Source of the DNA: a virus | Taxonomy: Duplodnaviria; Heunggongvirae; Uroviricota; Caudoviricetes | Length of the DNA: 13,543 nt | Virus record (IMG/VR): IMGVR_UViG_2698536485_000014 | Reading direction: 5' to 3' (one strand) | Part shown: positions 253 to 13,318 of the stretch, piece by piece | How the letters are laid out: each line of letters starts with the position of its first letter | Numbering within the stretch: the stretch's first letter is position 1 | Program-made: the position numbers and the translations under genes | The notes under the pieces: model-generated | Told to the model about the DNA's origin: nothing | Seen by the model: the letters and a program-made list of their open reading frames with translations, nothing else | Database searches by the model: none

Positions 253-281
253 ATTATATCAGTATTCTCTCAAATTGTCAA
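253..281 (-). promoter_or_regulatory. Consensus sigma70-type promoter firing leftward
   Basis: Reverse complement of 253-281 reads TTGACA, a 17-nt spacer, then TATAAT: both hexamers perfect with optimal spacing. Downstream on the minus strand (1-245) there is no ORF in the window, so the target is an sRNA or a gene beyond the left edge. Confidence 0.4.
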
Positions 282-814: not shown

Positions 815-1075
815 ATGACGGGGGCTAAAGATATCAGGAGACTGAGGGAAGAGCTGATAGCTGAAATTAAAGCTAAGGCAAAGCAAATGGAGATAGCCGC
901 ACAAATGGATGTAGCGGAGCAGATGTACAAGATGGTTGAGGAGGGAACACCACGACAGGTTATCGCTAAAACCTTCGGTGTGGGGATCGCCACCGTGCAT
1001 AGAAGGCTGAAAGCCTATGCCGACTACCACAATATCGAGAGAAAGGAGGATGGGAGATTCAGGAAAGCTAAATGA
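815..1075 (+). CDS. Small DNA-binding protein with C-terminal helix-turn-helix (86 aa)
   Basis: AGGAG Shine-Dalgarno before ATG 815. Charged coiled-coil-like N-terminus followed by a motif (TPRQVIAKTFGVGIATVHRRLKAY) typical of resolvase/TerS/sigma-type HTH. An 8-codon uORF (792..818) overlaps the start codon via ATGA. Confidence 0.6.
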   Translation: MTGAKDIRRLREELIAEIKAKAKQMEIAAQMDVAEQMYKMVEEGTPRQVIAKTFGVGIATVHRRLKAYADYHNIERKEDGRFRKAK

Positions 1076-1132: not shown

Positions 1133-1720
1133 ATGAACATTAAAACTATCATTGCAGTCATCACTATTGCCTTTAGTGCCAACACCGCAGCTATTGATGT
1201 AGGGGCCGTAAAAGATGCATCTTGTGCTGATAAACTGGCGGCACTTAATGCGGGATTCGATGCACCCCAGGGCTATCAAATGGGGCTATCTCTTAAAAAT
1301 ATTATTCTCCCTATGGAATCTGGCGCTTATGTATACGGAGCGATAGGAAAACTGGAGAAGCCGGAAATTGACCTGCAGGGTGTGAGAGCGAAGATCACAA
1401 AAAGAAATGAAAGCCTTTGTGATGTAGCTGAAATAGCTTTCATATCAGACGATGAAAAATCTATTTTAGCCTTTTGCAAAGATAGCGATGATAATGATCG
1501 CTTCTTTAAGATCACCCACAACAGGCCAATCTCTTTCTACTCTAATGCCACTATGGGCGCGGGTATGCAGTGGCTGAAGAGAGCTAAAGTAACTGAGATC
1601 GACATTGAAAAAGAGGCCAATGCAGGCAGTTATGGATTCTGGAAAGGCTGGACTAAATACACGTTCCAACAATGCGGCATCGATAGTCAGGCCTACGACA
1701 ACGGATTTTGGTTTTTCTAA
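1133..1720 (+). CDS. Secreted/periplasmic protein of unknown function (195 aa), moron-like
   Basis: N-terminus MNIKTIIAVITIAFSANTAA has a classic Sec signal peptide shape (basic residue, hydrophobic core, small-residue cleavage region). Four cysteines in the mature part; aromatic C-terminus (FWFF). GGGG Shine-Dalgarno at 1122-1125; terminator 22 nt downstream. Confidence 0.7.
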   Translation: MNIKTIIAVITIAFSANTAAIDVGAVKDASCADKLAALNAGFDAPQGYQMGLSLKNIILPMESGAYVYGAIGKLEKPEIDLQGVRAKITKRNESLCDVAEIAFISDDEKSILAFCKDSDDNDRFFKITHNRPISFYSNATMGAGMQWLKRAKVTEIDIEKEANAGSYGFWKGWTKYTFQQCGIDSQAYDNGFWFF

Positions 1721-1741
1721 CCTGCTAAGTTAATCCCACCA

Positions 1742-1768
1742 GGGGGCCATCACGGCCCCTTTTTATTT
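1742..1768 (+). terminator. Rho-independent terminator after the 1133..1720 gene
   Basis: Stem GGGGCC (1743-1748), loop ATCAC, stem GGCCCC (1754-1759), followed by TTTTTATTT. Confidence 0.6.
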
Positions 1769-1842
1769 GCCTCTTTGAATTACCCCCTATTTACACTCCT
1801 TTCAGTCCTGATCATCACTCCCTACGGTCATGAGCAATTAAC

Positions 1843-1889
1843 CCCTATTTAAGGGGTATTTAATGGGTATTTAATGCCTATTTATTGAT
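1843..1889. repeat. Four tandem 11-bp AT-rich repeats
   Basis: TATTTAA/TATTTAAT/TATTTAAT/TATTTATT begin at 1846, 1857, 1868 and 1879, an exact 11-bp period. The first unit is embedded in the hairpin CCCCTATTTAAGGGG. Confidence 0.5.
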
Positions 1890-1965
1890 TTAATCCGTTT
1901 TATGCCACAACCGCCCGGTTGACAGAGTAAGAGAGAGGGTGTAACCCTTTTTCGTAACACCAATA

Positions 1966-1981
1966 AAATCAATAAGTTAGC
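1966..1981. repeat. 16-bp exact direct repeat, left copy (AAATCAATAAGTTAGC)
   Basis: Identical 16-mer at 1966-1981 and 9620-9635, with 17 of 18 identity when extended. Rough chance expectation for a 16-mer pair in 13.5 kb is about 0.02. Confidence 0.45.
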
Positions 1982-2356
1982 TTAATAAGCCTTTTCTCTA
2001 TTTTTGTCAAATTTAACATACCCTCAAAAACTGCAAAATCTGGCTGCAAGATTATCTGCAGCTGGATTTCTTACACCTCATTTTGTGGTATCACCCTGAC
2101 TAGTTTGTGCATAAAATGAACAGTTTTTAACATTTCCTCTTCACCTGGTAACCACACAAAAAGCTAAAAACGAGGCACAGATAATCTTAGAGGCCTGTTT
2201 TCTTGTTATCACTCTGGAAACGTCGTAGAAGTGATTTTGATGAAAGATGACCTACCCTATTACACCCCCATTTTTTGTTATCACAATTGCATCCTGTGCG
2301 GTATATGGCTGTGTGCTGAAAGCGGTCTTGGGTGTGGGTGTCAGAAATATCCATTA

Positions 2357-2372
2357 GCGGTATTAATACCCG
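2357..2372. promoter_or_regulatory. Isolated palindrome GGTATTAATACC, related to the CGGTA...TACCG family
   Basis: Perfect 12-bp palindrome at 2359-2370 inside GCGGTATTAATACCCG, with the same half-sites as the array at 3300-3490 but a 1-nt shorter centre. Confidence 0.3.
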
Positions 2373-3157
2373 TCAGATGTTCGTCTGAGGTGCCAGGCAG
2401 GCGCTCCCCCACCTCCCTTTTTTCTTCTAACAATTCTCAAATATCACACCACTGCCCACCACGTTGCTATTATGTTAATTCTTAAGCTTTGCTGTATGTT
2501 GTGCACATTATTTATTCAGGTGCATGTACGTAAATTCTGGGCCTCCTTATCATGATTTTTAAATCAGATTTTGTAGTTCGGTTTCTTAGTGTAGATAAGA
2601 TCTATTATGTTAAATGCAATTTTCCCAACCCTTCAAATCAATGACTTACATGTAAGCATGCACTAACACCCCACACAGCACATTAGACGTGTAGATGTCT
2701 ATATCCCACATTTTTGATTGTTTTGTAGTCATTCCCCTGATCATTTAACCAGTATAGTTTGCTCTCTGCAGACCACAAAATCGGAATTTACATCTGATTA
2801 ACATAATCTGTTAGCATGATCACCATTACCCACACAACAATAACCCCATGCAAGCCTCTTTAGGCAATTTATCGGCGTGTTGGTGTGAACAGTCTTTCAT
2901 GTTCTTTATGTATTCATGACTGCAAGGAATGTATTCATTGTCCTGTGTGAGGGAAGGCTGGACTGCTCCAGGGGCCATAGTTATGATGCCCGGTCAACAT
3001 AGCTGTTGATAAAATCAACGGGTGTTGGCCTGCATATTTCCCACACATGAGAGGAAATCAAAGCAAAGAGAGAGGAGAGAGGTTTGCTAGACGATCAGGA
3101 CTATACAGAGTCAAAATCAAGTCACATTAGAGTCAAATCAGATGCAATCAATCCCCC

Positions 3158-3218
3158 ACCTGTTGGGATTTCCCACATGTTCAACCATACACAGGAGCTA
3201 ACCTGTTGGGATTTCCTA
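3158..3218. repeat. Two 18-bp direct repeats (ACCTGTTGGGATTTCCCA / ...CCTA)
   Basis: 3158-3175 and 3201-3218 match at 17 of 18 positions, 43 bp apart. Confidence 0.5.
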
Positions 3219-3235
3219 CACCTCTTGCACATACC

Positions 3236-3490
3236 CCGGAAGATTTTTCCGGTGTCTCCAACCTGTGAAGAATTTTCACACCTGTAAATCCATACAGCAC
3301 GGTAAAAACTACCGCACAACCTGTCAAAATATTTTACTACTCCCTTTAGTCATACCCCTTTCAGTCATACTCAGGCACCACACCCCGGTAAATATTACCG
3401 TACTCAGGCAGATATAAAGGGGCTAACCACGGCAAATATTTCCCTACTACCTCGGTAAATATTTCCGGTGTACCCCGGTAAAAATTACCG
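3236..3490. promoter_or_regulatory. Phased array of 15-bp palindromic sites (iteron/operator-like)
   Basis: CGGTAAAAACTACCG (3300-3314), CGGTAAATATTACCG (3386-3400), degenerate CGGCAAATATTTCCC (3430-3444), CGGTAAATATTTCCGG (3453-3468), CGGTAAAAATTACCG (3476-3490). Related palindromes CCGGAAGATTTTTCCGG (3236-3252) and GTGAAGAATTTTCAC (3265-3279). Centre-to-centre spacings are 86, 44, 23.5 and 22.5 bp, roughly multiples of two helical turns. Confidence 0.55.
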
Positions 3491-3519
3491 CCTAATAGAT
3501 AAAGTAATAGACCACACAA

Positions 3520-4060
3520 TAGATCCCCCCCTAACCCCCAAGGGGAATGGGGAGGGATCAGAGAGTGGGGAAGGTTTTCTAAGGGAAAAGCTTAACCCAC
3601 AAATGAAAGCCTAAAGAGCATGAGCGACTCTTTAGGCAATCTGTGTGTGGGGGGGGTGACAATGTATTCCATACATGACACGTCACCCAATTGTGTGTGG
3701 GAGTGCCTACGGCACCTTAGCCCATGGCTAAGCCCTTCGGGTCTGTGTGGGTCCGGCGAATGCGTCAGCATGAGGCCCACAATGTGGACCGCTGCCGAAA
3801 GCTTGCCAGCGCCGGAAGGAGGCAGCAAAGAGTCTCCCGCGCTCATGTGTGGGCGTATACGTAAGATATACACTCATAAATCGAAAATAAGCCCCCTAAA
3901 TGGCCTTCTGGCTGCATTAACCTGTGTGAGTAGTGAATTGCATTACCTGATGCTTAAATCGCGTTAGAATCGATTTTAGAGCGCTTAAGGCAAAAAGTGC
4001 CCTCCCTTGTGGGCTTGCTTGTGTCTGCTGTGCAGGCTATGGCACCTATAGCACACCTAA
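3520..4060. other. GC-rich, hairpin-dense non-coding segment; candidate structured RNA or protein-binding array
   Basis: No credible ORF. Perfect 10-bp stem GCCTAAAGAG/CTCTTTAGGC (3609-3637); nested hairpin 3654-3688; GTGCC-TAC-GGCAC (3703-3715); CTTAGCC-CAT-GGCTAAG; a C(TTCG)G tetraloop; GAAA loops. Boxes TGTGTGGG at 3643, 3692, 3744 and 3846, with degenerate copies at 3923 and 4007. Confidence 0.3.
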
Positions 4061-4076
4061 ATGATAATAATTCTCA

Positions 4077-4105
4077 TTGACAATTGGTTGACAATATGAT
4101 AAGAT
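4077..4105 (+). promoter_or_regulatory. Possible sigma70 promoter for the small membrane ORF
   Basis: TTGACA (4077-4082), 17-nt spacer, TAAGAT (4100-4105). A second TTGACA at 4088-4093 lacks a good -10. Confidence 0.3.
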
Positions 4106-4140
4106 TATAAATAGGGGGAGAAACAGATCCGGAGGTCAAT

Positions 4141-4290
4141 GTGGAAATTACAGATGCAATAGCGATCATCAACCTGGCTGTACTGTGGTGCGGTGTTGCC
4201 TACATAGCCGGAGTAACTGCAATCGACAATCTTGAAGAAAAAATGATAGATAAATACAAAAAGATTGTTGACAATTTGACGAATGTCTGA
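4141..4290 (+). CDS. Small membrane protein (49 aa, GTG start), hypothetical
   Basis: GGAGG Shine-Dalgarno at 4131-4135, 5 nt before GTG 4141. The product VEITDAIAIINLAVLWCGVAYIAGVTAIDNLEEKMIDKYKKIVDNLTNV contains one predicted transmembrane helix. Not in the ORF track because it is under 60 aa. Confidence 0.3.
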   Translation: MEITDAIAIINLAVLWCGVAYIAGVTAIDNLEEKMIDKYKKIVDNLTNV

Positions 4291-4296
4291 TAAAAT
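4268..4296 (+). promoter_or_regulatory. sigma70-type promoter upstream of the plus-strand gene module
   Basis: TTGACA (4268-4273), 17-nt spacer, TAAAAT (4291-4296). Predicted start near 4303, about 120 nt before ATG 4423. Confidence 0.5.
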
Positions 4297-4422
4297 ATAA
4301 AGCATAGGGTAATTCTCATCATAGTGAATTTCCTTTAGTAGACTGGCGGGGGCTTGTCTTAAGTTCCCGTTTCTTTTTAACCATATATCGCACAGGTTAG
4401 TGAGCTGACAGGAGATTGAATC

Positions 4423-4638
4423 ATGGCTAAAACCGGACCGATAAGCCAGCTAGTAAACTGGACTACTGACGAAATCGTCGAGAACGTGCTTAAAGGTAAC
4501 TTTCGAAAAACTTCCGTTTATGCATTTATTCGTAAACACAAAGGAGAATATCCACACATTGAAGCGGCAATTTTAGAACTGAACCGTCTCCGCATCGAGC
4601 GTGAGCTGGCTAAATACACCAACAACATTAATAAATAA
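4423..4638 (+). CDS. Small basic protein (71 aa), possible regulator
   Basis: AGGAG Shine-Dalgarno 8 nt before ATG 4423. First gene of a compact co-directional cluster. No recognisable family by eye. Confidence 0.55.
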   Translation: MAKTGPISQLVNWTTDEIVENVLKGNFRKTSVYAFIRKHKGEYPHIEAAILELNRLRIERELAKYTNNINK

Positions 4639-4651
4639 TTATGGGGGAACT

Positions 4652-5518
4652 ATGGCAAACAACTATGGGGAAAATTTTACTCCCCTTTTTAAACGTTTCA
4701 TCAAATACATTTTTAAAAATCCGATTGCAAAAACTACAACCAATAAAGAAAGATTTCACTTAAATTTGTTGGAAATGGCAATTTACGGTGAAATGGCAAG
4801 TTTCCATTTAAACGGTAAAGAAATATTTATCTCTGAGCAAACCTTAGCAGATGATTATGATGCCACAGAAAAAACAGTAAGGTCGGCTATCAAAACATTA
4901 GAGGCTGCAGGACTAATATTTGTAAAACGGAGCAGAGGTAAGTCTAATCATTACAAACTACTTATTACTCCTGATCAGCTTGGCAAGATGTGTGATGAGC
5001 AGGGTATTAAAACCTCCGCAAGTGTGGGATACAGCAAAGAGGCCTCCGATAATCAACAGGAAGCCCCAAAACAAGCCACACAGCAGCCTGAAAAGCCCGA
5101 GGCAATGCAATCCCCTTCCCAACCTAAAAAAGAACGCAGAGAACGCCGTAGAGACGCTGGCAAACGTGAAATAGATGAGCACGGTTATCCGATTCTGACA
5201 AGCGATGAAATGAATGCTAGATATAAAGTAATTCAGGCCGCATTTAAAGATCAGAAGAGAATTAAATTATCTGAATTGCGTGATACATTTTACGGGCCGG
5301 AGGTGATGGATAAAATTAAAGGCACTATTCCCGATAAAATCTGGAAAGAGAAAGATTATTGGCACCTGACAGAGCAGGCCCTTAAGGTGGCTCAACATGT
5401 GGTTAAAAGAGGCAAAACAATTACCCTTGATTCTATTAGTCATGGCTATGATGCACCGAAAGAAAGATTGTGGAACAACTGCAAGCTTGTAAATGGTGAA
5501 TTGACAATTACAAAATAA
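4652..5518 (+). CDS. Winged-helix DNA-binding protein (289 aa), possible replication initiator or organiser
   Basis: GGGGGA Shine-Dalgarno before ATG 4652; the track ORF 4601..5518 begins at an upstream GTG with no Shine-Dalgarno. N-terminal wHTH-like segment (ISEQTLADDYDATEKTVRSAIKTLEAAGLIFVKRSRGK), a low-complexity Q/P/E/K-rich linker, then a C-terminal domain. Architecture resembles iteron-binding initiators such as lambda O; this is an inference. Confidence 0.6.
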   Translation: MANNYGENFTPLFKRFIKYIFKNPIAKTTTNKERFHLNLLEMAIYGEMASFHLNGKEIFISEQTLADDYDATEKTVRSAIKTLEAAGLIFVKRSRGKSNHYKLLITPDQLGKMCDEQGIKTSASVGYSKEASDNQQEAPKQATQQPEKPEAMQSPSQPKKERRERRRDAGKREIDEHGYPILTSDEMNARYKVIQAAFKDQKRIKLSELRDTFYGPEVMDKIKGTIPDKIWKEKDYWHLTEQALKVAQHVVKRGKTITLDSISHGYDAPKERLWNNCKLVNGELTITK

Positions 5519-5557
5519 ATATTCTTATTTTTTACAGTATTCTAAAGGAAATTTAAA

Positions 5558-5704
5558 ATGTATGGCGATTTTGATTATTACCTGGAAAAGGAAAAATATT
5601 TTGAAGATGAACTATCACAACATTTTTCATATTGGGAAGAATATTGTGGTTGGTTAGCTGAAGATCCAGCAGATGAAGAAAATGATTCTGACATCCCTTA
5701 TTAA
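5558..5704 (+). CDS. Small acidic protein (48 aa), hypothetical
   Basis: AAGGAA Shine-Dalgarno before ATG 5558. Product MYGDFDYYLEKEKYFEDELSQHFSYWEEYCGWLAEDPADEENDSDIPY is strongly acidic and aromatic. Below the ORF-track size cut-off. Confidence 0.35.
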   Translation: MYGDFDYYLEKEKYFEDELSQHFSYWEEYCGWLAEDPADEENDSDIPY

Positions 5705-5808
5705 TTAATATCCCCTGTTATCCCCAAATAAACTAAATAAACTAATTACATATAGAACTAGAACTAGATTGATTTCTCTTTAATGTTAAATTGACTGGAG
5801 AATTAATC

Positions 5809-6294
5809 ATGTTCAAATCTGATCTTTCTGATTCCCAATTTGAAAAACTGGTAGCACTGCAGAAATATCTCCCCAGTGATGATCAACCAACACGACAGGC
5901 TAAGCACTTATTAGTCGAGGGCTTTACCCCTGAATTCGTGGCGGAATACACAGGCGTTAAACTTGAGAAAGTCCAAAAACTATATAATGAGTCCTGGAAT
6001 CCACGGTGTAGAGTTCCCCTCAGTGTCTACAACGAAATAGATAGAGATAGAAATGTCTTCGAAGATCGCCGCCGCAAATCTCTTTTAATGTGGAATTGCG
6101 GGATGAATATTGAAGAGATAGCAAAAGAATTAAAAGTAACCTGCTTTCATATCTGGGGCTTGTTGAGTGAAATCCTGCCACGTAAGGAGCTTAATCAACG
6201 TTTGCCTAAGCCCGGTAGTCGTGCTTATCGCGAATTTATATTCATCTACCGCCGCCATAGCAATAAAGTCCGGAAAGCAATGCAGCGCAAATAG
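5809..6294 (+). CDS. Hypothetical protein (161 aa) with two HTH-like segments
   Basis: GGAG Shine-Dalgarno before ATG 5809; the track start 5791 is a TTG. Segments FTPEFVAEYTGVKLEKVQKLY and GMNIEEIAKELKVTCFHIWGLL look like helix-turn-helix motifs. Basic C-terminus. Confidence 0.55.
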   Translation: MFKSDLSDSQFEKLVALQKYLPSDDQPTRQAKHLLVEGFTPEFVAEYTGVKLEKVQKLYNESWNPRCRVPLSVYNEIDRDRNVFEDRRRKSLLMWNCGMNIEEIAKELKVTCFHIWGLLSEILPRKELNQRLPKPGSRAYREFIFIYRRHSNKVRKAMQRK

Positions 6295-6336
6295 CTTATA
6301 GCCTTCACATATGCCGCAAGTTATTGATTCTGCCGT

Positions 6337-6352
6337 CCGGTAAATATGCCGG
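6337..6352. promoter_or_regulatory. Extra copy of the palindromic operator (CCGGTAAATATGCCGG)
   Basis: Same CGGTAAATAT core as the array at 3300-3490, placed 31 nt upstream of ATG 6383 in the gap between two genes. Confidence 0.4.
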
Positions 6353-6382
6353 ATGGCTCATATAAATTTTAAGGAATTCCAA

Positions 6383-6826
6383 ATGTCTCAAATCGCTAAA
6401 TTACTATCCCAGGTTATCAAAGCTTTCGACGCTGAAGATTCAAAAGTTCGCCAGGATCTTTTAGATGGCAAGTTTACCAACACCCTGGCATTTACCCGTG
6501 ACAAAGAGCACTTCTTAAAACACAGACACCACGCTTTTGCTGAATGCAAGTCCGCTAATGGTGATGTTTTCTATGTCGATTTGGTGGTTATGGCATGTAG
6601 GCTGTGGATGATTCAGGACCTTATGCGCCAACACGGTGATGATCCTCTTATCAGCATGTGGAACAGCGCCCAGGATGGCTTTGTGATTGCTGCCTTATCC
6701 AAATCAATGATTGAGGCAGAAGGGGCAAGCCTTCAGAACATGGCAGATCTCTTTGAAATAAGCGTAGGAATGATGCAGACCATGCTCCAAGCTGTCAAAC
6801 CTCTCAAACTGGTTAATCTTGATTAA
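6383..6826 (+). CDS. Hypothetical protein (147 aa), predicted mainly helical
   Basis: AAGGA Shine-Dalgarno 7 nt before ATG 6383; the track start 6353 lacks a Shine-Dalgarno and overlaps the operator. Composition is rich in A, L, M, Q, K and E, unlike a beta-rich tail tube protein. Confidence 0.55.
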   Translation: MSQIAKLLSQVIKAFDAEDSKVRQDLLDGKFTNTLAFTRDKEHFLKHRHHAFAECKSANGDVFYVDLVVMACRLWMIQDLMRQHGDDPLISMWNSAQDGFVIAALSKSMIEAEGASLQNMADLFEISVGMMQTMLQAVKPLKLVNLD

Positions 6827-6885
6827 GCTATTGATAAATAAGCACTCCCCATTTTTGGGGGGTGCATCAATGAGAGGATATGCCT

Positions 6886-7269
6886 ATGAATATTGAAGAA
6901 ATGATAGTTGAATTCGAAGAGGGTGATTTCCTGGAAGATGGGGAGTTTAGTTACTCCCATTTTAAACAGGCGTTATTTAGCAGCGATGATAAACCACACG
7001 TTAGTGATCTTAACGACGATGATTTATGTCGTTGGGTGTGCACCCGCTTATATGAGGATGGAAAATATACAGGCCAAAACTTTCCAAATCTCTATTTCAA
7101 AGCACAAACATTTGAGGAAGGGCAAAGAGTGAAAAACCTGGTCGATCAAATGCTGTCAGCCGGATATTTGCATAAAGAATTATTAAATCCTAAAGCTGAA
7201 AGCAAGCGCCATTATATTTTTGTGTGGACTATTGGCGATAAGTGTCCACTAAGACGCAAAGGCAAATGA
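6886..7269 (+). CDS. Hypothetical acidic protein (127 aa)
   Basis: GAGAGGA Shine-Dalgarno 7 nt before ATG 6886. Acidic N-terminus. Second gene upstream of the tape-measure gene. Confidence 0.5.
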   Translation: MNIEEMIVEFEEGDFLEDGEFSYSHFKQALFSSDDKPHVSDLNDDDLCRWVCTRLYEDGKYTGQNFPNLYFKAQTFEEGQRVKNLVDQMLSAGYLHKELLNPKAESKRHYIFVWTIGDKCPLRRKGK

Positions 7270-7270
7270 T

Positions 7271-7507
7271 ATGAACACCTACGAAAAGATTTATCAAAAA
7301 CTGGTTAAGGACTCCGAAGAGACGCCCGAAGGGGTGACAATAGGTCACCTACCAGAGGCAGCGAAAGAGGGGTCCACCATTATTAAAAGTGGCACCCACA
7401 CAGAAGGCCTCTCAATCGAAGAGCTGGCGGAGAAATATAATATTGATAAAGAGGCCCTGAAAAGGGCTATTTCATTATCAAAATCTTTAAGACAGGGTGA
7501 GGTATAA
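7271..7507 (+). CDS. Hypothetical protein (78 aa)
   Basis: ATG 7271 lies 1 nt after the upstream TGA. The gene ends 1 nt before the tape-measure start, so the three genes are tightly packed. Confidence 0.5.
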   Translation: MNTYEKIYQKLVKDSEETPEGVTIGHLPEAAKEGSTIIKSGTHTEGLSIEELAEKYNIDKEALKRAISLSKSLRQGEV

Positions 7508-7508
7508 A

Positions 7509-9608
7509 ATGGCAATGAAGGAAGTAGCCAAACTAACAAACGTTATTTACTGGGATTCTGATAAATCCTCCTGGCGAAAAGAAGTTAAACGGCTTGAGGA
7601 TTATAAAAAATCCTGGAAGAAAGCTACCGACGATATAGCTAAAGCGGATTTTAAATCGAATCAGGCTGTGCTCAGAACACAAAGAACACGCGCTAAGGTG
7701 GAAGAGCAGATCGCCAGAGCACAGAAGAAACAACGTGCTCAGGCTGTCAGCCGTCTGACCGGGGGCAATAATCCGGAGCTCTCCTCTATGCGCAAGTTCT
7801 ATCAGCAGCAAGCCAGAGAGGCCGCCAGACAACAAAAACTGTTAGATCGTAGTGTTGGAGATGTTCAGCACAGAAAAGCACGTGTAGGGGCCAACAGTGC
7901 ACGAATCAGCAGCATGTTTGATGGCTCCCTGGTTGCTCAGTTCCAAAGCAGGATCCAGAGAGTTAATGCTGATTATGCTAAAGGGGCTATCAACCTGCAG
8001 GCCTATAATCAGAAAATGGCTCGGCTCAGGGCTGAAATGAAGATGGCAACAGCAGAGGCCGGAAAATTTCAGAGCAGACTGGATAAACTGGCATCAGGTG
8101 CCAGCAAGGTGCATGACAACCTGGGCAAAATCAACTCCACACTAGGCAAGATAGCCATTGGCCTTACTGCCGCTGGCTGGGGTGTTCAGCGTGCTGTTAG
8201 TGGTGCTATGGGTAGCCTTGCAGATCGCAACAGTGCCTACTTCGGTTTGATGGCACAGAACAAGGATGATAAAGCCAAGACTGATCAGCAGATGGCTTTT
8301 ATCAAGAACACAGCCTACACCTATGGGATGGATGAGCGGGAGATGCAAGGGGGCTACATGCGCTTTGCTGCAGCTACTCCCACCATGAAGGAATCTGATA
8401 AGCAGGCTCTTTTTGAGGCTATGGCTATTAAAGGTCGCTCAGTGGGTGCTACTGGCGAGCAACAGAACAGGGCGCTTGTTGCGGTCCAACAAATGGCTTC
8501 AAAGGGAAAAGTTATGGCGGAAGAGCTGCGGGGCCAACTGTCAGAAGCCTTTGCAGGCTCACAACAGGATTTTCAACAGGCCGCTATTGATGCCGGAATC
8601 ATCAAGAATACCCAGGAATTCGATAAAGCCCTTAAAGATGGCAAAATCACCCTGGATAAGCTACTCCCTTCTTTGGTGAAAATCTGGTCTGCAGCCAAGA
8701 ATACGAAAGCCTTTGCTGAATCCATGAAACAGCCAGAAGTAGCAATGCAGCGCATGAAAAACAGCTTTAACGAGCTGGCGATTCAGTTTATGGGTGTTGT
8801 GGATCCTGCGGATGGCGTTATTAGCTTATCTGAATCTCTGATCTCCATCTTTGAAGACCTCACCACTGATATGGACGGCAGCGGGAGCGCGGCAAAACAG
8901 TTCGGTGAGGCAGTCGGGGCTGCCATGCGTGAGATCATGTATTGGGTAGGCTTCGCTAAGGGATATATTGAGGTCAAGGCTAAAGAGTTCGGCATGACCG
9001 GATCAGAGGTTGGCGAGCTTATCGGAAAATTGGTAGTCGGCTTAGCTGGTCTGAAAGTTATTACTACACTGCTTTCCCCTCTAACCGGATTTGTTTCACT
9101 TGTCACCCAACTGATAGCTTTGTTAGGTAAAATCCCTGGTATGAGCAAGCTTCTGGCTTCTGCCTCAGGTGGAACGGCAACAGGAGCAGCGGTCATCAGT
9201 GCAGGCTCTAACGCTGAAAGAAGTTTCATTGATGGCAAGACGCAGGAAATGAGTAAGGAGAACTCAAAACAGGGTGCTTTGTTTGAGCTGGGAAGATTTG
9301 TTAGCAATGCTGGCGCACTGTTCACACCTGGCGGTGATACTGGTCCTTTGTTCGATCAGGTCAGAGGCTGGTTTAATAAAGGGCCAACATTGACAGTAGA
9401 CACTGGCATCAGACCTACACCAACAGGCGGCATAGCTATCCAGAATGGTGGATATCAACCAGTCCAAGTAAATGTAGCCCCACAAGGTGAGATTTCCGGC
9501 AAATGGGAGATAACCATTGATGAGGGTGGAATTGCCAGGGTGATCCAGAAGGAAGTCAGCGATCAGTTGGATTGGAAAGCCACACAGGAATCTAACCAGC
9601 TTTTCTAA
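7509..9608 (+). CDS. Tail tape-measure-domain protein (699 aa)
   Basis: GGTGAGG Shine-Dalgarno 6 nt before ATG 7509; the track start 7497 is a GTG. Coiled-coil, Q/R/K-rich N-terminus. Central segment ...QQMASKGKVMAEELRGQLSEAFAGS...KALKDGKITLDKLLPSL... matches my recollection of the conserved tape-measure domain motif. Hydrophobic segments (LIGKLVVGLAGLKVITTLLSPLTGFVSLVTQLIALLG) and a Gly-rich C-terminus are also typical. Confidence 0.6.
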   Translation: MAMKEVAKLTNVIYWDSDKSSWRKEVKRLEDYKKSWKKATDDIAKADFKSNQAVLRTQRTRAKVEEQIARAQKKQRAQAVSRLTGGNNPELSSMRKFYQQQAREAARQQKLLDRSVGDVQHRKARVGANSARISSMFDGSLVAQFQSRIQRVNADYAKGAINLQAYNQKMARLRAEMKMATAEAGKFQSRLDKLASGASKVHDNLGKINSTLGKIAIGLTAAGWGVQRAVSGAMGSLADRNSAYFGLMAQNKDDKAKTDQQMAFIKNTAYTYGMDEREMQGGYMRFAAATPTMKESDKQALFEAMAIKGRSVGATGEQQNRALVAVQQMASKGKVMAEELRGQLSEAFAGSQQDFQQAAIDAGIIKNTQEFDKALKDGKITLDKLLPSLVKIWSAAKNTKAFAESMKQPEVAMQRMKNSFNELAIQFMGVVDPADGVISLSESLISIFEDLTTDMDGSGSAAKQFGEAVGAAMREIMYWVGFAKGYIEVKAKEFGMTGSEVGELIGKLVVGLAGLKVITTLLSPLTGFVSLVTQLIALLGKIPGMSKLLASASGGTATGAAVISAGSNAERSFIDGKTQEMSKENSKQGALFELGRFVSNAGALFTPGGDTGPLFDQVRGWFNKGPTLTVDTGIRPTPTGGIAIQNGGYQPVQVNVAPQGEISGKWEITIDEGGIARVIQKEVSDQLDWKATQESNQLF

Positions 9609-9619
9609 TATTGTGATCT

Positions 9620-9635
9620 AAATCAATAAGTTAGC
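9620..9635. repeat. 16-bp exact direct repeat, right copy (AAATCAATAAGTTAGC)
   Basis: Identical to 1966-1981; lies 12 nt after the tape-measure stop codon. Confidence 0.45.
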
Positions 9636-9655
9636 CTGACCGGATAAACTCCAGG

Positions 9656-9690
9656 CAAGAAAAAAGCCCCTAAGTGTTAACAAAGGGGCT
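9656..9690 (-). terminator. Rho-independent terminator on the minus strand
   Basis: Stem AGCCCCT (9665-9671) pairs with AGGGGCT (9684-9690) around a 12-nt loop. On the minus strand the stem is followed by TTTTTCTTG. On the plus strand no T-run follows. Confidence 0.45.
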
Positions 9691-9719
9691 CTTCTCCGGT
9701 ATCCTTTTGATGCGGGGCG

Positions 9720-9767
9720 AACCTGCTAACAAAAATCAACCTCTCGCGAGACTAATGTTAGCAGGTT
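9720..9767. repeat. 12-bp perfect inverted repeat with 24-nt loop
   Basis: AACCTGCTAACA (9720-9731) pairs with TGTTAGCAGGTT (9756-9767). The loop contains the palindrome TCTCGCGAGA and a degenerate copy of the leader box (TCAACCTCTCGCGAG). Confidence 0.5.
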
Positions 9768-10108
9768 GCCGGAAGGTAAGTCAACTCCGGCCTATAAACC
9801 TTAAAGCGACTATAAAATCGCCCCGCCAATTGTGATGATCCGACCTTTGAGGCGGGTCCGGTGCCCAGGGGGTGCAGTGATGCACAAACCAGGCAACGAT
9901 AAACAGGCTAACAGTGATAGCGGCGCTCAATCAGCGCACTAAATCCTAACCAGTCCGGGAAAGAGGCTGGCTCTATCGACCGCTCATGCACGGGACAATG
10001 CATACCTGATAAAGGATTCTCACAAGGGACCAATCGCGAGAAAAGAAGTGGAAAGGGGCTGATTTGTGGTGTATCACTACGGCCTCAAAAGAACACTATT
10101 ACCTTTTT

Positions 10109-10567
10109 TCAGCCTCTCCCAACATTTGACCAGTATTTGATTGCACCGATCAAATCATCATAGTGGCGCATTGCATCATTGAAGCCTTTATAGCTTGCCC
10201 ATTGTGGGGAGACTTTGTTATTGCTGAATTGCCCACTAATCAGGATAGTCTCCAAAATGTCGGCGTATCGCTTGCCAATTCGCTTTCTGACGGCCTCAGA
10301 GCTTCCACCCTTTACGATTGCATTAATCAGGGCTTTTGTGTGTCTCAGGCTCTCATAGAGCATTGCAGCGTGGGCAGATTCCATAAAGGAGCGCTTAGGC
10401 AGATCACCCCACCCCTCAGAGTGGATAGCTGCCAGTGTGGCGTAATTCAGGCCGCTATAGTGCTTTCCGTCATCCCAGCCAACCGCTACACCTTCCATCT
10501 GTGAGAGCTCTTTATGCAGCTTATCCATCATGCGCTTGTCTATGGTGCAACGGACTTTCGGACTCAT
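10109..10567 (-). CDS. Hypothetical protein (152 aa), possibly virion morphogenesis-associated
   Basis: GGAG Shine-Dalgarno 8 nt before the minus-strand ATG at 10567. The start overlaps the upstream gene stop as ATGA (10564-10567). Function assigned by position only. Confidence 0.55.
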   Translation of the reverse strand: MSPKVRCTIDKRMMDKLHKELSQMEGVAVGWDDGKHYSGLNYATLAAIHSEGWGDLPKRSFMESAHAAMLYESLRHTKALINAIVKGGSSEAVRKRIGKRYADILETILISGQFSNNKVSPQWASYKGFNDAMRHYDDLIGAIKYWSNVGRG

Positions 10568-11367
10568 TTGTTGATCTCCGTGATGTCATCGAGCAACATG
10601 TTGGCCTTATCAATCATCGTTTCGTGGAACTCATTCGACACAACAGACTTATCACCTGCGGCAATCTTTCCCGCTGCCTCTCCCTGTGCATATTCCCCGC
10701 GATGCTTAGCCCTGGTTGATTTCGTAGCAGCATTGCCAGCGTTACTACCCTCTTTAGCACTGTTAACAGCACCCTTTTGCTGTGTTTTATTCACCTTCTT
10801 ACTGTTAGTGAAAACTCCGGCATTTTCGACCATCTTCACCTTGAAGGTGCGGAATTCTTCAAAAGTGCAATCAATAGTGATGCAGTCACCGGAGGAAGAG
10901 CTACGCTTAACTTCACATTTCGTCATGATGAAGTTCTCAAGAAGTCCGGCATCTTCACTCACCAGGCTAACCAGCTGGCGCTTGTCTCTCATTTCCATAA
11001 GAGCACGCACAGCGGCGGCGGGGCGCATGGATTCAAGGGGATTATCTGGATCAGTGTTCCGGTCGATGTAGTTCTCTTTCCGGATAATGTGAGGGGAAGA
11101 GGTAATAATGCCCGTAAAGCTGACAGATTTATCTTTAATGACGGCATGGTCTGACATGGTGGTGCCATCCTCGACCGCATAGCTCGATTTCTCAACAGGG
11201 AACGAATAGCTGACATCAGAGATAGAGTCAAAGAAGATAGCCACATTATCGGTATAGTTGAAGCCATCCATCATATTTTTGTTTTGTGAATATCCCCCAC
11301 ACATAACAGTGAATGCAGGAGATCTCGACTCAGCTTGTTTTGCAGCTGTCAGAGCATCACTAGCCAT
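10564..11367 (-). CDS. Hypothetical protein (about 268 aa), Ser/Thr/Val-rich with low-complexity C-terminus
   Basis: Preferred start is ATG at 11367, with GGAGG 10 nt upstream. The alternatives are ATG 11376 (too close to the Shine-Dalgarno) and the track TTG at 11421. The composition suggests a beta-rich structural protein; this is an inference. Confidence 0.55.
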   Translation of the reverse strand: MASDALTAAKQAESRSPAFTVMCGGYSQNKNMMDGFNYTDNVAIFFDSISDVSYSFPVEKSSYAVEDGTTMSDHAVIKDKSVSFTGIITSSPHIIRKENYIDRNTDPDNPLESMRPAAAVRALMEMRDKRQLVSLVSEDAGLLENFIMTKCEVKRSSSSGDCITIDCTFEEFRTFKVKMVENAGVFTNSKKVNKTQQKGAVNSAKEGSNAGNAATKSTRAKHRGEYAQGEAAGKIAAGDKSVVSNEFHETMIDKANMLLDDITEINK

Positions 11368-11561: not shown

Positions 11562-11813
11562 TTATTTTGCAAAACGATTATGGGCATTCAGGGCTTTTTT
11601 GCGGTCCTGGGCTTGTTTGCGTGCAATAAAATGTTCGAAAGTCTCGGCCCAGGTGCATTTATTATATTCACGGTATTTATGCATAGCCTGGCGGCTAACG
11701 TCATAGCAGGCGGCAAATGTGGAGATACGCAGGAATTCCGGCAGATCCTCGTCATCGATATGGATAATATCAAAAGGCACGTCGTCACGGTCGCCGTATA
11801 AAACAATTTTCAT
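11562..11813 (-). CDS. Small acidic protein (83 aa) with possible HTH
   Basis: GAGGTG Shine-Dalgarno 8 nt before ATG 11813; the track start 11822 is a GTG. Contains the segment CYDVSRQAMHKYREY. Sits just downstream of the capsid terminator. Confidence 0.45.
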   Translation of the reverse strand: MKIVLYGDRDDVPFDIIHIDDEDLPEFLRISTFAACYDVSRQAMHKYREYNKCTWAETFEHFIARKQAQDRKKALNAHNRFAK

Positions 11814-11927: not shown

Positions 11928-12971
11928 TTATTTAGCCTTGGCTTTTGCCAGAGCGGCGGCGGAGTTACTAACACTCACTTTAATCACAACTTCAGGCATC
12001 ATGTTCATGAAAGCATAAGAGGATTCAATGAAGATTTCTCGTTTACCTCTGGACTCTTCCATATACATGAAAGCTTCACGTGCAGCGCCGTTTGCAAGCT
12101 TCAGGTTGCGAGCGCAAGGGCCGAAAAATTGAGTATAAACGCCCACCATATCGCCTAACGCATGCGGCTGGAACTGTGGGACCAGATAAGCAGTATTCTC
12201 TGGCAGACTATCCATTTGCACCACACGCAGAGCTAAGCCCGGAATGCGGAAGGTCGGGAAGCCCGGCAGAATATCCTCAGGGAACATCAGACCTTTGTCG
12301 GTAATATTCTGATTGCCGAACAACAGCACTTTTCTCAACAGTTCATCAGTCTGAATTGCAGCAAAGAGTTCAGCACGGCAGAACAGGGTGAAACCACGCA
12401 GAGCGCGAACAACACCACGCTGTTTAACCTTGCTCAGTGCAACCAGGTCCTGCAGCTGTTTAAGGATATCTTTAGCTAAATCCACTTCGGAAGTAGTTTG
12501 TTGTGCGCCCAGCAGTTCGCACACATTCAGTTCTTTACCCTTGGTGAGGATAATTTTGTTCTCAAAGAGAGCAAGCTGGCGTGCTTCTTCGTGGGTCTGG
12601 CGTAAGCCTTCGCCAAGCTGAATGACACGACGAGCGGTTACAGACTCTAAATTCTCTTCGGAATCTTTGCCCGGAACACGGATACCCTGCCAGTCAGAAG
12701 GATAAATAGCACTTGATGCGGCAGTGAATGCCATATCACCCGTGCCCGTTTCACGCTCATCTGCGGTAATGGTCGCCATCTGTTCACCGTAGCGCGGATA
12801 CTGACCGAAAGCGGTTTGTTTCACCTGGCGAACTTTGTCATATTCAAATTTAAAGGTATTGCACAGAGCAGTAGTGTTGAAGATATCCATTGCTGAAATA
12901 ATCTGGTTATCCAGCGGGATGTCTTTAATCAGACCACACAGATCGCGAACTTCGAATTCTTTCTTAGCCAT
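11928..12971 (-). CDS. Major capsid protein, lambda gpE-like family (about 347 aa)
   Basis: AAGGAGG Shine-Dalgarno 6 nt before ATG 12971; the track start 12977 is a TTG. Size matches gpE-type capsid proteins. N-terminal FKFEYD and C-terminal PEVVIKVSV segments resemble lambda E as I recall it. It follows a decoration-size gene by 11 nt and is followed by a strong terminator. Confidence 0.6.
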   Translation of the reverse strand: MAKKEFEVRDLCGLIKDIPLDNQIISAMDIFNTTALCNTFKFEYDKVRQVKQTAFGQYPRYGEQMATITADERETGTGDMAFTAASSAIYPSDWQGIRVPGKDSEENLESVTARRVIQLGEGLRQTHEEARQLALFENKIILTKGKELNVCELLGAQQTTSEVDLAKDILKQLQDLVALSKVKQRGVVRALRGFTLFCRAELFAAIQTDELLRKVLLFGNQNITDKGLMFPEDILPGFPTFRIPGLALRVVQMDSLPENTAYLVPQFQPHALGDMVGVYTQFFGPCARNLKLANGAAREAFMYMEESRGKREIFIESSYAFMNMMPEVVIKVSVSNSAAALAKAKAK

Positions 12972-12982
12972 CTTCAACCTCC

Positions 12983-13318
12983 TTATTGTGCAACACGCAA
13001 ATCGCCATTGCTGGCAGCGATAACAGCGGCTAAGCCGTCTTTATCCACGTAGGCCGGATTGATATAACAGCCTTTGTTGGCAACAACGATAAAAGCGTCA
13101 CCAACCTCAGCACGTTCTACAACCAGCAGCGGAGTTTTACCGGTGTGTGTTTCTTTAACGAAGGTCTCAACCTCGCCAGCCTCAGTCACCACAACAACAG
13201 TGCCAGCCGGAATCTCAGCTTTAACTTTGTTTTTAATTTCAACGTCGCGAATACTAAATTGCTCATCTGCGGCGTATGAAATGATGTGTCCGCGTGTGCG
13301 GATAGTCATATCTTTCAT
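12983..13318 (-). CDS. Head decoration-like protein (111 aa)
   Basis: AGGTGA Shine-Dalgarno before ATG 13318. Small Val/Ala/Glu-rich product directly upstream of the capsid gene, in the gpD-gpE arrangement. Its stop codon overlaps the capsid Shine-Dalgarno. Call is by position and size only. Confidence 0.45.
   Translation of the reverse strand: MKDMTIRTRGHIISYAADEQFSIRDVEIKNKVKAEIPAGTVVVVTEAGEVETFVKETHTGKTPLLVVERAEVGDAFIVVANKGCYINPAYVDKDGLAAVIAASNGDLRVAQ

Follow-up and report, generated by a model that had tools for sequence, protein, structure and literature searches.

The record IMGVR_UViG_2698536485_000014 of the IMG/VR virus database, assigned to the Caudoviricetes, is a stretch of 13,543 nucleotides (nt), analysed here over its full length and referred to as the window, in which a string of seven small genes leads into a gene for a tape measure protein (TMP). 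The subject of this article is the element carrying these genes, which is a complete circular Escherichia coli plasmid of about 13.5 kb. The window spans the whole of contig LOIV01000003.1, part of an E. coli assembly, and in a circular sister plasmid (L002) the first and last positions of the window adjoin each other. Since the window is the whole plasmid, no wider contig exists on which a missing tail operon could lie. The seven co-oriented genes occupy positions 4423-7507 of the plus strand and encode proteins of 71, 288, 48, 161, 147, 127, and 78 amino acids (aa), followed by the 699-aa open reading frame (ORF) of the TMP at 7509-9608; the list of ORFs and the genes called for the contig in public records both give this layout. 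A minus-strand capsid operon runs towards this plus-strand gene string, and the two meet at 9608-10109. Both the gene order and the convergence had been noted in a preliminary description of the DNA, made from the nucleotide sequence without database searches, and both were borne out.

Among 5,426 complete E. coli genomes searched by megablast, the plasmid is present in seven, as a circle of 13.2-13.7 kb whose genes are in the same order, and none of the ten matching places is chromosomal. In PLSDB, all five records of the plasmid are typed as non-mobilizable. The plasmid is widespread in E. coli and Shigella, with carrier isolates from human, pig, cattle, and chicken on four continents. More than 120 variants of the TMP (96-100% identical) were found, nearly all on contigs of 13.2-14.1 kb, and the exact sequence of an 83-aa protein of the plasmid is indexed in 2,579 assembly-collection blocks, in 2,018 of which the longest contig measures 10-20 kb. 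Some plasmid records are dimer or trimer assemblies. A derivative of 30 kb (L013 and L018) has a strAB/tet-type resistance transposon inserted in the convergent gap, a contig of 79 kb (L016) contains a copy fused to a microcin B17/ParM plasmid, and in a contig of 94.6 kb (L019) the copy is degraded by insertion sequences, the TMP being split into parts of 429 and 222 aa. A linear element with fixed ends was considered, since in several records the matches extended from one end to the other, and was rejected because the records are circular and permuted.

Structural genes and their relation to Vequintavirus

Four plasmid proteins are homologous to proteins of Vequintavirus, the genus of the rV5-like phages: a Dit-like protein (50% identity), a neck/tail-completion protein (43%), the TMP (27%), and the major capsid protein (MCP; 24%). 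The annotated structural region of phage Bas53 served as reference, and the search for homologs in the whole phage covered Bas53 bases 3,623-135,602, within which the remaining plasmid proteins have no detectable homolog.

The 699-aa product of the gene at 7509..9608 (plus strand) matches the Pfam family TMP_3 with 54.0 bits (cutoff 41), the model TIGR02675 (tape_meas_nterm) with 34 bits (cutoff 21.35), and the family phrog_5255 with E = 2e-168. The tape-measure assignment of the preliminary description thus holds up in searches with hidden Markov models (HMMs) and, judged by its sequence, the protein is a genuine TMP. It is colinear with the 778-aa TMP of Bas53 over residues 4-494 and is 79 aa shorter, the difference consisting mainly of gaps in the N-terminal helical third. 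Among sister plasmids the length of the TMP ranges from 699 to 718 aa, with indels of 7 aa (a heptad) in the N-terminal helical part, and a hydrophobic double segment is located at aa 501-543. A patch at about aa 85-110 is conserved with respect to Bas53, including a 36-nt DNA match at 89%, and it might, speculatively, be a binding site for a helper partner such as a chaperone. In Bas53, the 157-aa gene upstream of the TMP gene encodes a tail assembly chaperone (TAC; Phage_TAC_15, E = 3e-23).

The Dit-like protein (10564..11367, minus strand; Pfam Dit_like, E = 4.8e-25), annotated by NCBI as 'phage baseplate protein', is a predicted tail-tube initiator, its 50% identical counterpart in Bas53 being the 'tail tube initiator' bas53_0019, whose gene adjoins that of the phage TMP. 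In tblastn searches against phage records it reached the same 50% with Vequintavirus phages including rV5, FV3, and the BASEL phage Bas53, which are lytic myoviruses of about 136 kb. GenBank records named 'Campylobacter phage' (MG0656xx; C11, C12, C14, C15, A12a, A116, and others) match exactly like E. coli rV5-like phages, their identity to the Dit-like protein and to a non-coding element described below being equal, and their labels look wrong. The neck/tail-completion protein (152 aa; 10109..10567, minus strand) belongs to phrog_222, 'tail completion or Neck1' (E = 7.9e-29), and corresponds to bas53_0011, likewise of 152 aa. The preliminary description had stated that tube, sheath, and baseplate genes are absent; for tube and sheath this is true of the window, whereas the Dit-like initiator and the tail-completion gene, both on the minus strand, do not fit the statement.

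The MCP (347 aa; 11928..12971, minus strand) is a divergent protein of the lambda gpE type (phrog_29, E = 2.9e-20), and its identity to the Bas53 MCP, a member of Pfam Phage_cap_E, extends over the full length. Directly upstream of the capsid gene, a 111-aa protein is encoded at 12983..13318 (minus strand), where rV5-like phages have their decoration gene and where proteins of about 110-116 aa are also found in two of the small elements discussed below (L026 and L030). It has no family match, a BLASTP comparison with the phage decoration protein was negative, and hhalign gave a probability of 0.16% for the family of about 110 aa against that protein. Since neither method gives support, the label 'decoration protein' rests on position, which makes the protein a candidate for a decoration or scaffold function. 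The structural operon also contains a gene for an HTH-like (helix-turn-helix) protein, the 83-aa protein mentioned above (11562..11813, minus strand), which is 100% conserved in five plasmids. In Pfam, PHROG, and NCBIfam scans of the whole replicon, no gene was found for a terminase, portal, protease, tube, sheath, baseplate wedge, fibre, or lysis protein, nor for an integrase or a scaffold.

In five plasmids compared, all genes are intact and free of stop codons. The ratio of nonsynonymous to synonymous substitutions (dN/dS), pooled over these plasmids, ranges from 0 to 0.36, with 0.01 for the neck/tail-completion protein, 0.06 for the Dit-like protein, 0.09 for the MCP, 0.13 for the TMP, and about 0 for the 83-aa protein. 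These values indicate that the genes are functional and under purifying selection.

Non-coding elements, replication, and regulation

An ORF-free region of about 2.4 kb (1721..4140), the size of which is conserved in all sister plasmids, contains two kinds of repeats. Six palindromic iterons of 19 nt (ACCCCGGTAAATATTACCG) at 3233..3490 constitute the putative plasmid origin and are replaced in plasmids with other Rep alleles. An array of short hairpin cassettes in tandem, each preceded by TGTGTGGG, is located at 3640..3960 (plus strand), and the order, presence, and type of the cassettes vary among the sister plasmids (window, L002, L004, L006, L016-L025). Many cassettes end in CCCTTCGGG, and in those with three hairpins the stems are kept by compensatory changes, e.g., GTGCC/GGCAC versus GTGCT/AGCAC. 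No transfer RNA (tRNA) genes were found in the window, and Rfam contains no family for the ORF-free region, the phage-like element described next, or the cassettes.

One cassette of about 100 nt (3744-3856) has an intergenic homolog in about 120 rV5-like genomes, the Vequintavirus site being 85-87% identical to it over 62 nt (window 3781-3842); further copies were located at 2955-3060 of L007 and at 132225-132330 of Bas53. In the phage, the copy is situated immediately downstream of an AT-rich stretch and four palindromic repeats, with a small regulator gene on one side and the tRNA cluster on the other. All types of the element have a perfect central stem at the same position, which reads GCTGCC / GGCAGC in one plasmid type, GTCCGGAT / ATCCGGAC in a second plasmid type, and ACCGAC / GTCGGT in the phage type. 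The RNAalifold consensus of ten copies is weak, because three sequence types are out of register. A similar region without ORFs, 2.5 kb long, exists in Bas53 (91000-93521), and the plasmid matches it in two short places. Within the 78-aa gene, a 108-nt segment at 7300-7408, which is 57 nt long in sister plasmids with the frame kept (78 or 61 aa), holds a minus-strand cassette of TGTGTGGG plus hairpins that matches the ORF-free region of Bas53 at 91852-91896. The comparison indicates that the plasmid and the Vequintaviruses share or exchange cis elements. The hairpin elements, acting as RNA or single-stranded DNA, are candidates for origin or priming signals of the helper replisome or for small RNAs. 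As a separate observation, the 7-mer TGTGTGG/CCACACA occurs 20 times in the window (about 1.4 expected under a first-order model) and is about twofold enriched in Bas53, where it is concentrated in two non-coding regions; an inverted pair of it lies at 74-111, one copy overlapping a perfect DnaA-box complement (TGTGGATAA, 103-111).

The seven genes upstream of the TMP gene had been taken as part of a tape-measure module in the preliminary description. They do not form a tail module, as they comprise replication and regulatory genes and others without an assigned role. Since the 288-aa gene encodes a replication initiator, the unit is not purely a tail unit, and the 'tape-measure module' is a plasmid replication and regulation operon with the TMP gene at its end. 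The initiator Rep (4652..5518, plus strand) is a winged-HTH protein that matches Pfam HTH_36, phrog_270 (E = 3e-12), and phrog_391, 'replication initiation' (E = 1e-9), with a dN/dS of at most 0.36. The presence of a Rep initiator and tandem iterons is characteristic of iteron-type theta plasmids, and we interpret the plasmid as replicating from its iterons by means of the Rep that it encodes. The identity of this Rep to that of the sister plasmids L004 and L005 is 39-42%, and to that of L006 82%. The unassigned 71-aa protein (4423..4638, plus strand) co-varies with it, alleles of both genes being as low as 38-42% identical in L004/L005, and the iteron region (3177-3492) fails to align in L004 and L005, and also in L006 despite the 82% of Rep. 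This variation of Rep, the 71-aa protein, and the iterons resembles incompatibility groups diverging within a single family of plasmids.

That proteins encoded upstream of the TMP are HTH-like was confirmed, as several carry HTH signatures in Pfam. The 161-aa protein (5809..6294; dN/dS 0.10), a possible regulator, has two weak HTH-like segments (HTH_40, Sigma70_r4), and the 78-aa protein (7271..7507; 61 aa in some plasmids), whose gene abuts the TMP start codon, gives a weak HTH signal. The 147-aa protein (6383..6826; dN/dS 0.13) is predicted to be all-helical and has no family or Protein Data Bank (PDB) match, and the 127-aa protein (6886..7269; dN/dS 0.21), whose gene is tightly spaced to the next one, also lacks a family match; all four are encoded on the plus strand. 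PDB sequence searches with the 111-, 127-, 147-, and 161-aa proteins yielded nothing meaningful, and AlphaFold2 models from single sequences (mean predicted local distance difference test score 47.7 for the 127-aa and 39.7 for the 147-aa protein) were too poor for a fold search. In BLASTP comparisons with the phage TAC-region genes at equivalent positions, the 147- and 78-aa proteins had no match.

An 86-aa DNA-binding protein (815..1075, plus strand) matches Pfam HTH_7 with 27.5 bits. It is followed by a variable cargo slot (1133..1720, plus strand), which in the window encodes a 195-aa protein with an N-terminal signal-like segment and in sister plasmids a protein of 173, 233, or 236 aa instead; with its signal-peptide-like N-terminus, the 195-aa protein may be accessory cargo, e.g., an exclusion factor. 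A hydrophobic protein of 49 aa (4141-4290), 98-100% conserved and encoded between two plus-strand promoters, may be a small membrane peptide, e.g., toxin- or holin-like.

Regulation of the plasmid probably involves three near-consensus sigma-70 promoters. One of them (253..281, minus strand), which matches the consensus in 12 of 12 positions and has the TG motif, points across the record junction into the capsid operon, and two (4077-4105 and 4268-4296, plus strand) head the string from rep to the TMP gene, the seven genes upstream of the latter appearing to be read from these two strong promoters at 4077-4296. A 46-nt inverted repeat (250-295 and 4254-4299), with the common sequence TTGACAATTTGA, holds two of the three best sigma-70 promoters and looks like a common operator of the capsid and rep-TMP operons. 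Several of the small HTH proteins may take part in the regulation. An rV5-specific late promoter upstream of the plasmid genes was also considered; the promoters are merely near-consensus sigma-70 promoters with an extended -10 region, as in the phage, and do not discriminate.

Satellite, interference plasmid, or remnant

The four proteins homologous to Vequintavirus and the shared non-coding elements suggest a relation to these phages as helpers, which in itself does not imply dependence. In our judgement the plasmid is probably a satellite of virulent rV5-like myoviruses that makes a small head of its own and a slightly shorter tail of chimeric composition. Upon infection of a carrier cell by a Vequintavirus, the plasmid MCP, perhaps together with the 111-aa protein, would form heads sized for 13.5 kb. 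The plasmid TMP, tube initiator, and tail-completion protein would stand in for those three proteins of the helper that form the tail lumen or are in contact with it, and the helper would provide the chaperone, tube, sheath, baseplate, fibres, portal, protease and maturation functions, and the terminase and packaging machinery. With 1.5-1.6 Å per residue, a TMP shorter by 79 aa would result in a tail shorter by about 12 nm. The preliminary description had raised the possibility of a satellite-like element that supplies its own tape measure or manipulates tail length. This is the reading best supported by the completeness of the plasmid, the rV5-like homologs, the shorter TMP, and the precedent of a Vibrio cholerae satellite discussed in the last section; for the packaging and the helper dependence that it entails, as for transfer, we infer from the genes.

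Several observations weigh against this interpretation. Neither a small terminase nor a recognisable pac site was found on the plasmid. The TAC of the helper is readily detected, whereas none is recognised on the plasmid, where the Phage_TAC models of Pfam had no match to any protein. The MCP is only 24% identical to that of the helper, so that its use of the helper's portal and protease is open to doubt. The structural genes, having strong sigma-70 promoters, could be expressed without a phage. The 30-kb resistance-transposon variant and the cointegrates in larger plasmids indicate that the size is not strictly constrained. Comparison of the plasmid with phage records by megablast gave no match, and no match for its MCP was found among the IMG/VR viral contigs, where the pattern-based scans reach only close relatives.

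The strong, constitutive-looking promoters would also suit expression before infection, as expected if the plasmid were not transferred at all and served phage interference, the diverged versions of the TMP, tube initiator, tail-completion protein, and capsid protein being dominant-negative decoys that poison the head and tail assembly of rV5-like phages and so protect the population. The structural proteins have their counterparts specifically in one phage group and are under purifying selection, no packaging function was identified on the plasmid, and tail-assembly blockers are known from satellites and prophages, e.g., Rta of the satellite PLE11 and Tai. However, four to five structural genes far exceed the needs of a decoy, and a TMP with two end-binding partners and a capsid protein looks like a functional substitution set, as in the Vibrio satellite. 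PADLOC detected no defence family at a meaningful level, and the distribution of a non-mobilizable plasmid over four hosts and four continents needs a transfer route. We regard a purely defensive plasmid as rather unlikely, while noting that interference and satellite transfer are not mutually exclusive, the Vibrio satellite doing both.

Even less probable is the reading that a larger phage-plasmid or prophage decayed to this plasmid, which would have kept phage genes by chance, without present function. The incomplete gene set, the 2.4-kb ORF-free stretch, and the one clearly degraded copy within the 94.6-kb contig would fit such an origin, but every 13-kb copy examined has intact genes with the low dN/dS values given above, the same architecture is found in thousands of assemblies, and a core of TMP and MCP recurs in unrelated small elements. 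A parent phage was not found either, the best phage match of the MCP being 23% identical and megablast, as stated, giving none. The draft assembly from which the window comes and its short contig would suit a piece of an ordinary phage or prophage broken up in assembly, with the tail operon on other contigs; this reading is contradicted by closed circular plasmids of equal size and gene order in complete genomes, in which the window ends join, and by the same contig size in hundreds of independent assemblies, and we give it practically no weight. The ordinary tail operon on the wider contig that the preliminary description had envisaged is excluded by the same closed plasmids.

The plasmid belongs to a set of small elements with related capsid proteins. 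An exhaustive HMMER search of 1.84 billion cluster representatives revealed only 29 relatives of the MCP, and the nearest clusters are all on small contigs: a relative with 42% identity (P0139) on a Logan contig of 13.3 kb, one with 30% (P0140) in E. coli and Shigella sonnei on contigs of 13.8-15.9 kb, one with 28% in Klebsiella on a contig of 13.7 kb, and one with 23% of Plesiomonas type on contigs of 11-12.2 kb. P0139 and P0140 probably represent sister element families in E. coli; a scan of IMG/VR with the 30%-identity E. coli family yielded nothing. Two 12-kb elements with 36% GC (L026 and L027) encode an integrase, a 581-aa TMP (TMP_3), a 110-aa protein, and a Phage_cap_E MCP, as well as a Phage_phiTE_211-like protein, this Pfam family being named after the rV5-like phage phiTE. 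The length of their TMP nearly equals the 582 aa reported for the TMP of the Vibrio satellite. A Klebsiella-type element (L030; IMG/VR UViG_3300011522_000034) encodes an integrase, a 116-aa protein, an MCP, and a 713-aa protein, the N-terminal part of which matches TMP families (phrog_36805, E = 3.6e-14). At 11333-14035, beside its capsid gene, this element carries a DarT toxin and a NADAR antitoxin, which we take to be a DarTG defence system and which agrees with the picture of satellites as hot spots of defence. The TMPs of L026/L027, L030, and the plasmid have the N-terminal motif of rV5-type TMPs in common. As a TMP and a gpE-like capsid protein recur together with a protein of about 110 aa in independent elements, the combination constitutes a recurrent core, and the plasmid is not a one-off. 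On this basis a wider proposal can be made, which we put forward tentatively and with less confidence than the satellite reading itself: a common plasmid satellite of Vequintavirus in E. coli and Shigella may remodel both ends of the virion, may belong to a superfamily defined by 'TMP + ~110-aa + gpE-like capsid' that includes integrative islands of Klebsiella and Plesiomonas type and is conceptually akin to the Vibrio satellite, and may share with its helper a new class of shuffling TGTGTGGG hairpin cassettes.

If the plasmid is a satellite, this would explain the spread of a 'non-mobilizable' plasmid through E. coli lineages. Vequintavirus phages are widely used for therapy and typing, and their efficacy in therapy and biocontrol could be affected. 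The plasmid would also offer a tractable E. coli model for the selective incorporation of a TMP into a tail.

Comparison with known systems

In a literature search for the plasmid, its protein accessions, and satellites of rV5, nothing was found. Among the known types of elements, phage-plasmids such as P1, N15, and SSU5 are distinguished from the plasmid by its replicon of 13.5 kb and its incomplete virion gene set. Satellite P4, whose helper is P2, resembles it in being able to persist as an autonomous plasmid, and with 11.6 kb the P4 genome is close to it in size. However, P4 encodes no capsid or tail protein, and in PHROG and Pfam scans the plasmid showed no sid, psu, delta, alpha (primase-helicase), or integrase gene. 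The Ccm proteins of SaPIbov5 and EcCICFT073 are satellite-encoded capsid-protein homologs that redirect capsid size and thus, like the plasmid MCP, diverged homologs of a helper MCP carried by a satellite; these elements are chromosomal phage-inducible chromosomal islands (PICIs) of cos phages and have no TMP. Capsid-forming PICIs (cf-PICIs) likewise have their own capsid protein of the HK97 fold and use tails supplied by the helper. They differ from the plasmid in being chromosomal, in having an integrase and a complete set of head and packaging genes (portal, protease, small terminase, and connectors), of which the plasmid has an MCP, a 111-aa neighbour, and one neck/tail-completion protein only, and in not being known for tail-lumen genes, which the plasmid carries.

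A satellite maintained as a plasmid is described by Schmid et al. 2024 (cited in PMC12282955), the phage in that case being filamentous (an inovirus). According to a 2025 review, one plasmid has been proven to be a phage satellite, so that the present plasmid, if its proposed role is true, would be one of very few.

With respect to gene set, the closest known system is the PICI-like element (PLE) of Vibrio cholerae, which provides the precedent for chimeric tails. All PLEs encode an alternative TMP (582 aa, versus 677 aa in the helper ICP1) and a TAC, and PLE11, though not every PLE, in addition encodes an alternative baseplate hub; the three proteins are 19-41% identical to those of ICP1, and the resulting chimeric tails are about 10 nm shorter (2025 preprint, 2026 Nature version). 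It is because of these alternative TMP, TAC, and baseplate hub proteins that the statement of the preliminary description, according to which the gene set matches no described system, fails. For the PLE proteins, microscopy, western blot, mass spectrometry, and genetics have established the function experimentally, whereas that of the plasmid proteins is likened to it by gene set.

Both are small elements that parasitise a large virulent myovirus, which for the plasmid we infer from its genes. Both have their own TMP, weakly similar to that of the helper (about 20% in PLE, 27% in the plasmid) and shorter than it (by 95 and 79 aa, respectively), together with a baseplate-proximal protein whose counterpart adjoins the TMP in the helper genome (BhuB with 41%, the Dit-like protein with 50% identity). 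Both have their own Rep and an iteron-type origin and lack tube, sheath, and fibre genes, and the replication proteins of ICP1 and rV5 are related (rV5 paper). The two systems differ in that PLE is a chromosomal island of Vibrio with an integrase, whereas the plasmid is autonomous, has no integrase, was never found in a chromosome, and resides in E. coli. PLE encodes a TAC, none being recognisable on the plasmid, and remodels the coat of its helper with the scaffold TcaP, whereas the plasmid has its own MCP and adds a neck/tail-completion protein. Before 2025-26, satellites were thought to steal complete tails, and PLE is the only family reported with a TMP and chimeric tails. What is new here is the occurrence of chimeric-tail genes on an E. 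coli plasmid, together with its own capsid and tail-completion proteins and apparently aimed at Vequintaviruses. If the proposed role is true, the plasmid would be a second, unrelated-looking system, and tail remodelling would be a general strategy of satellites rather than an oddity of Vibrio.

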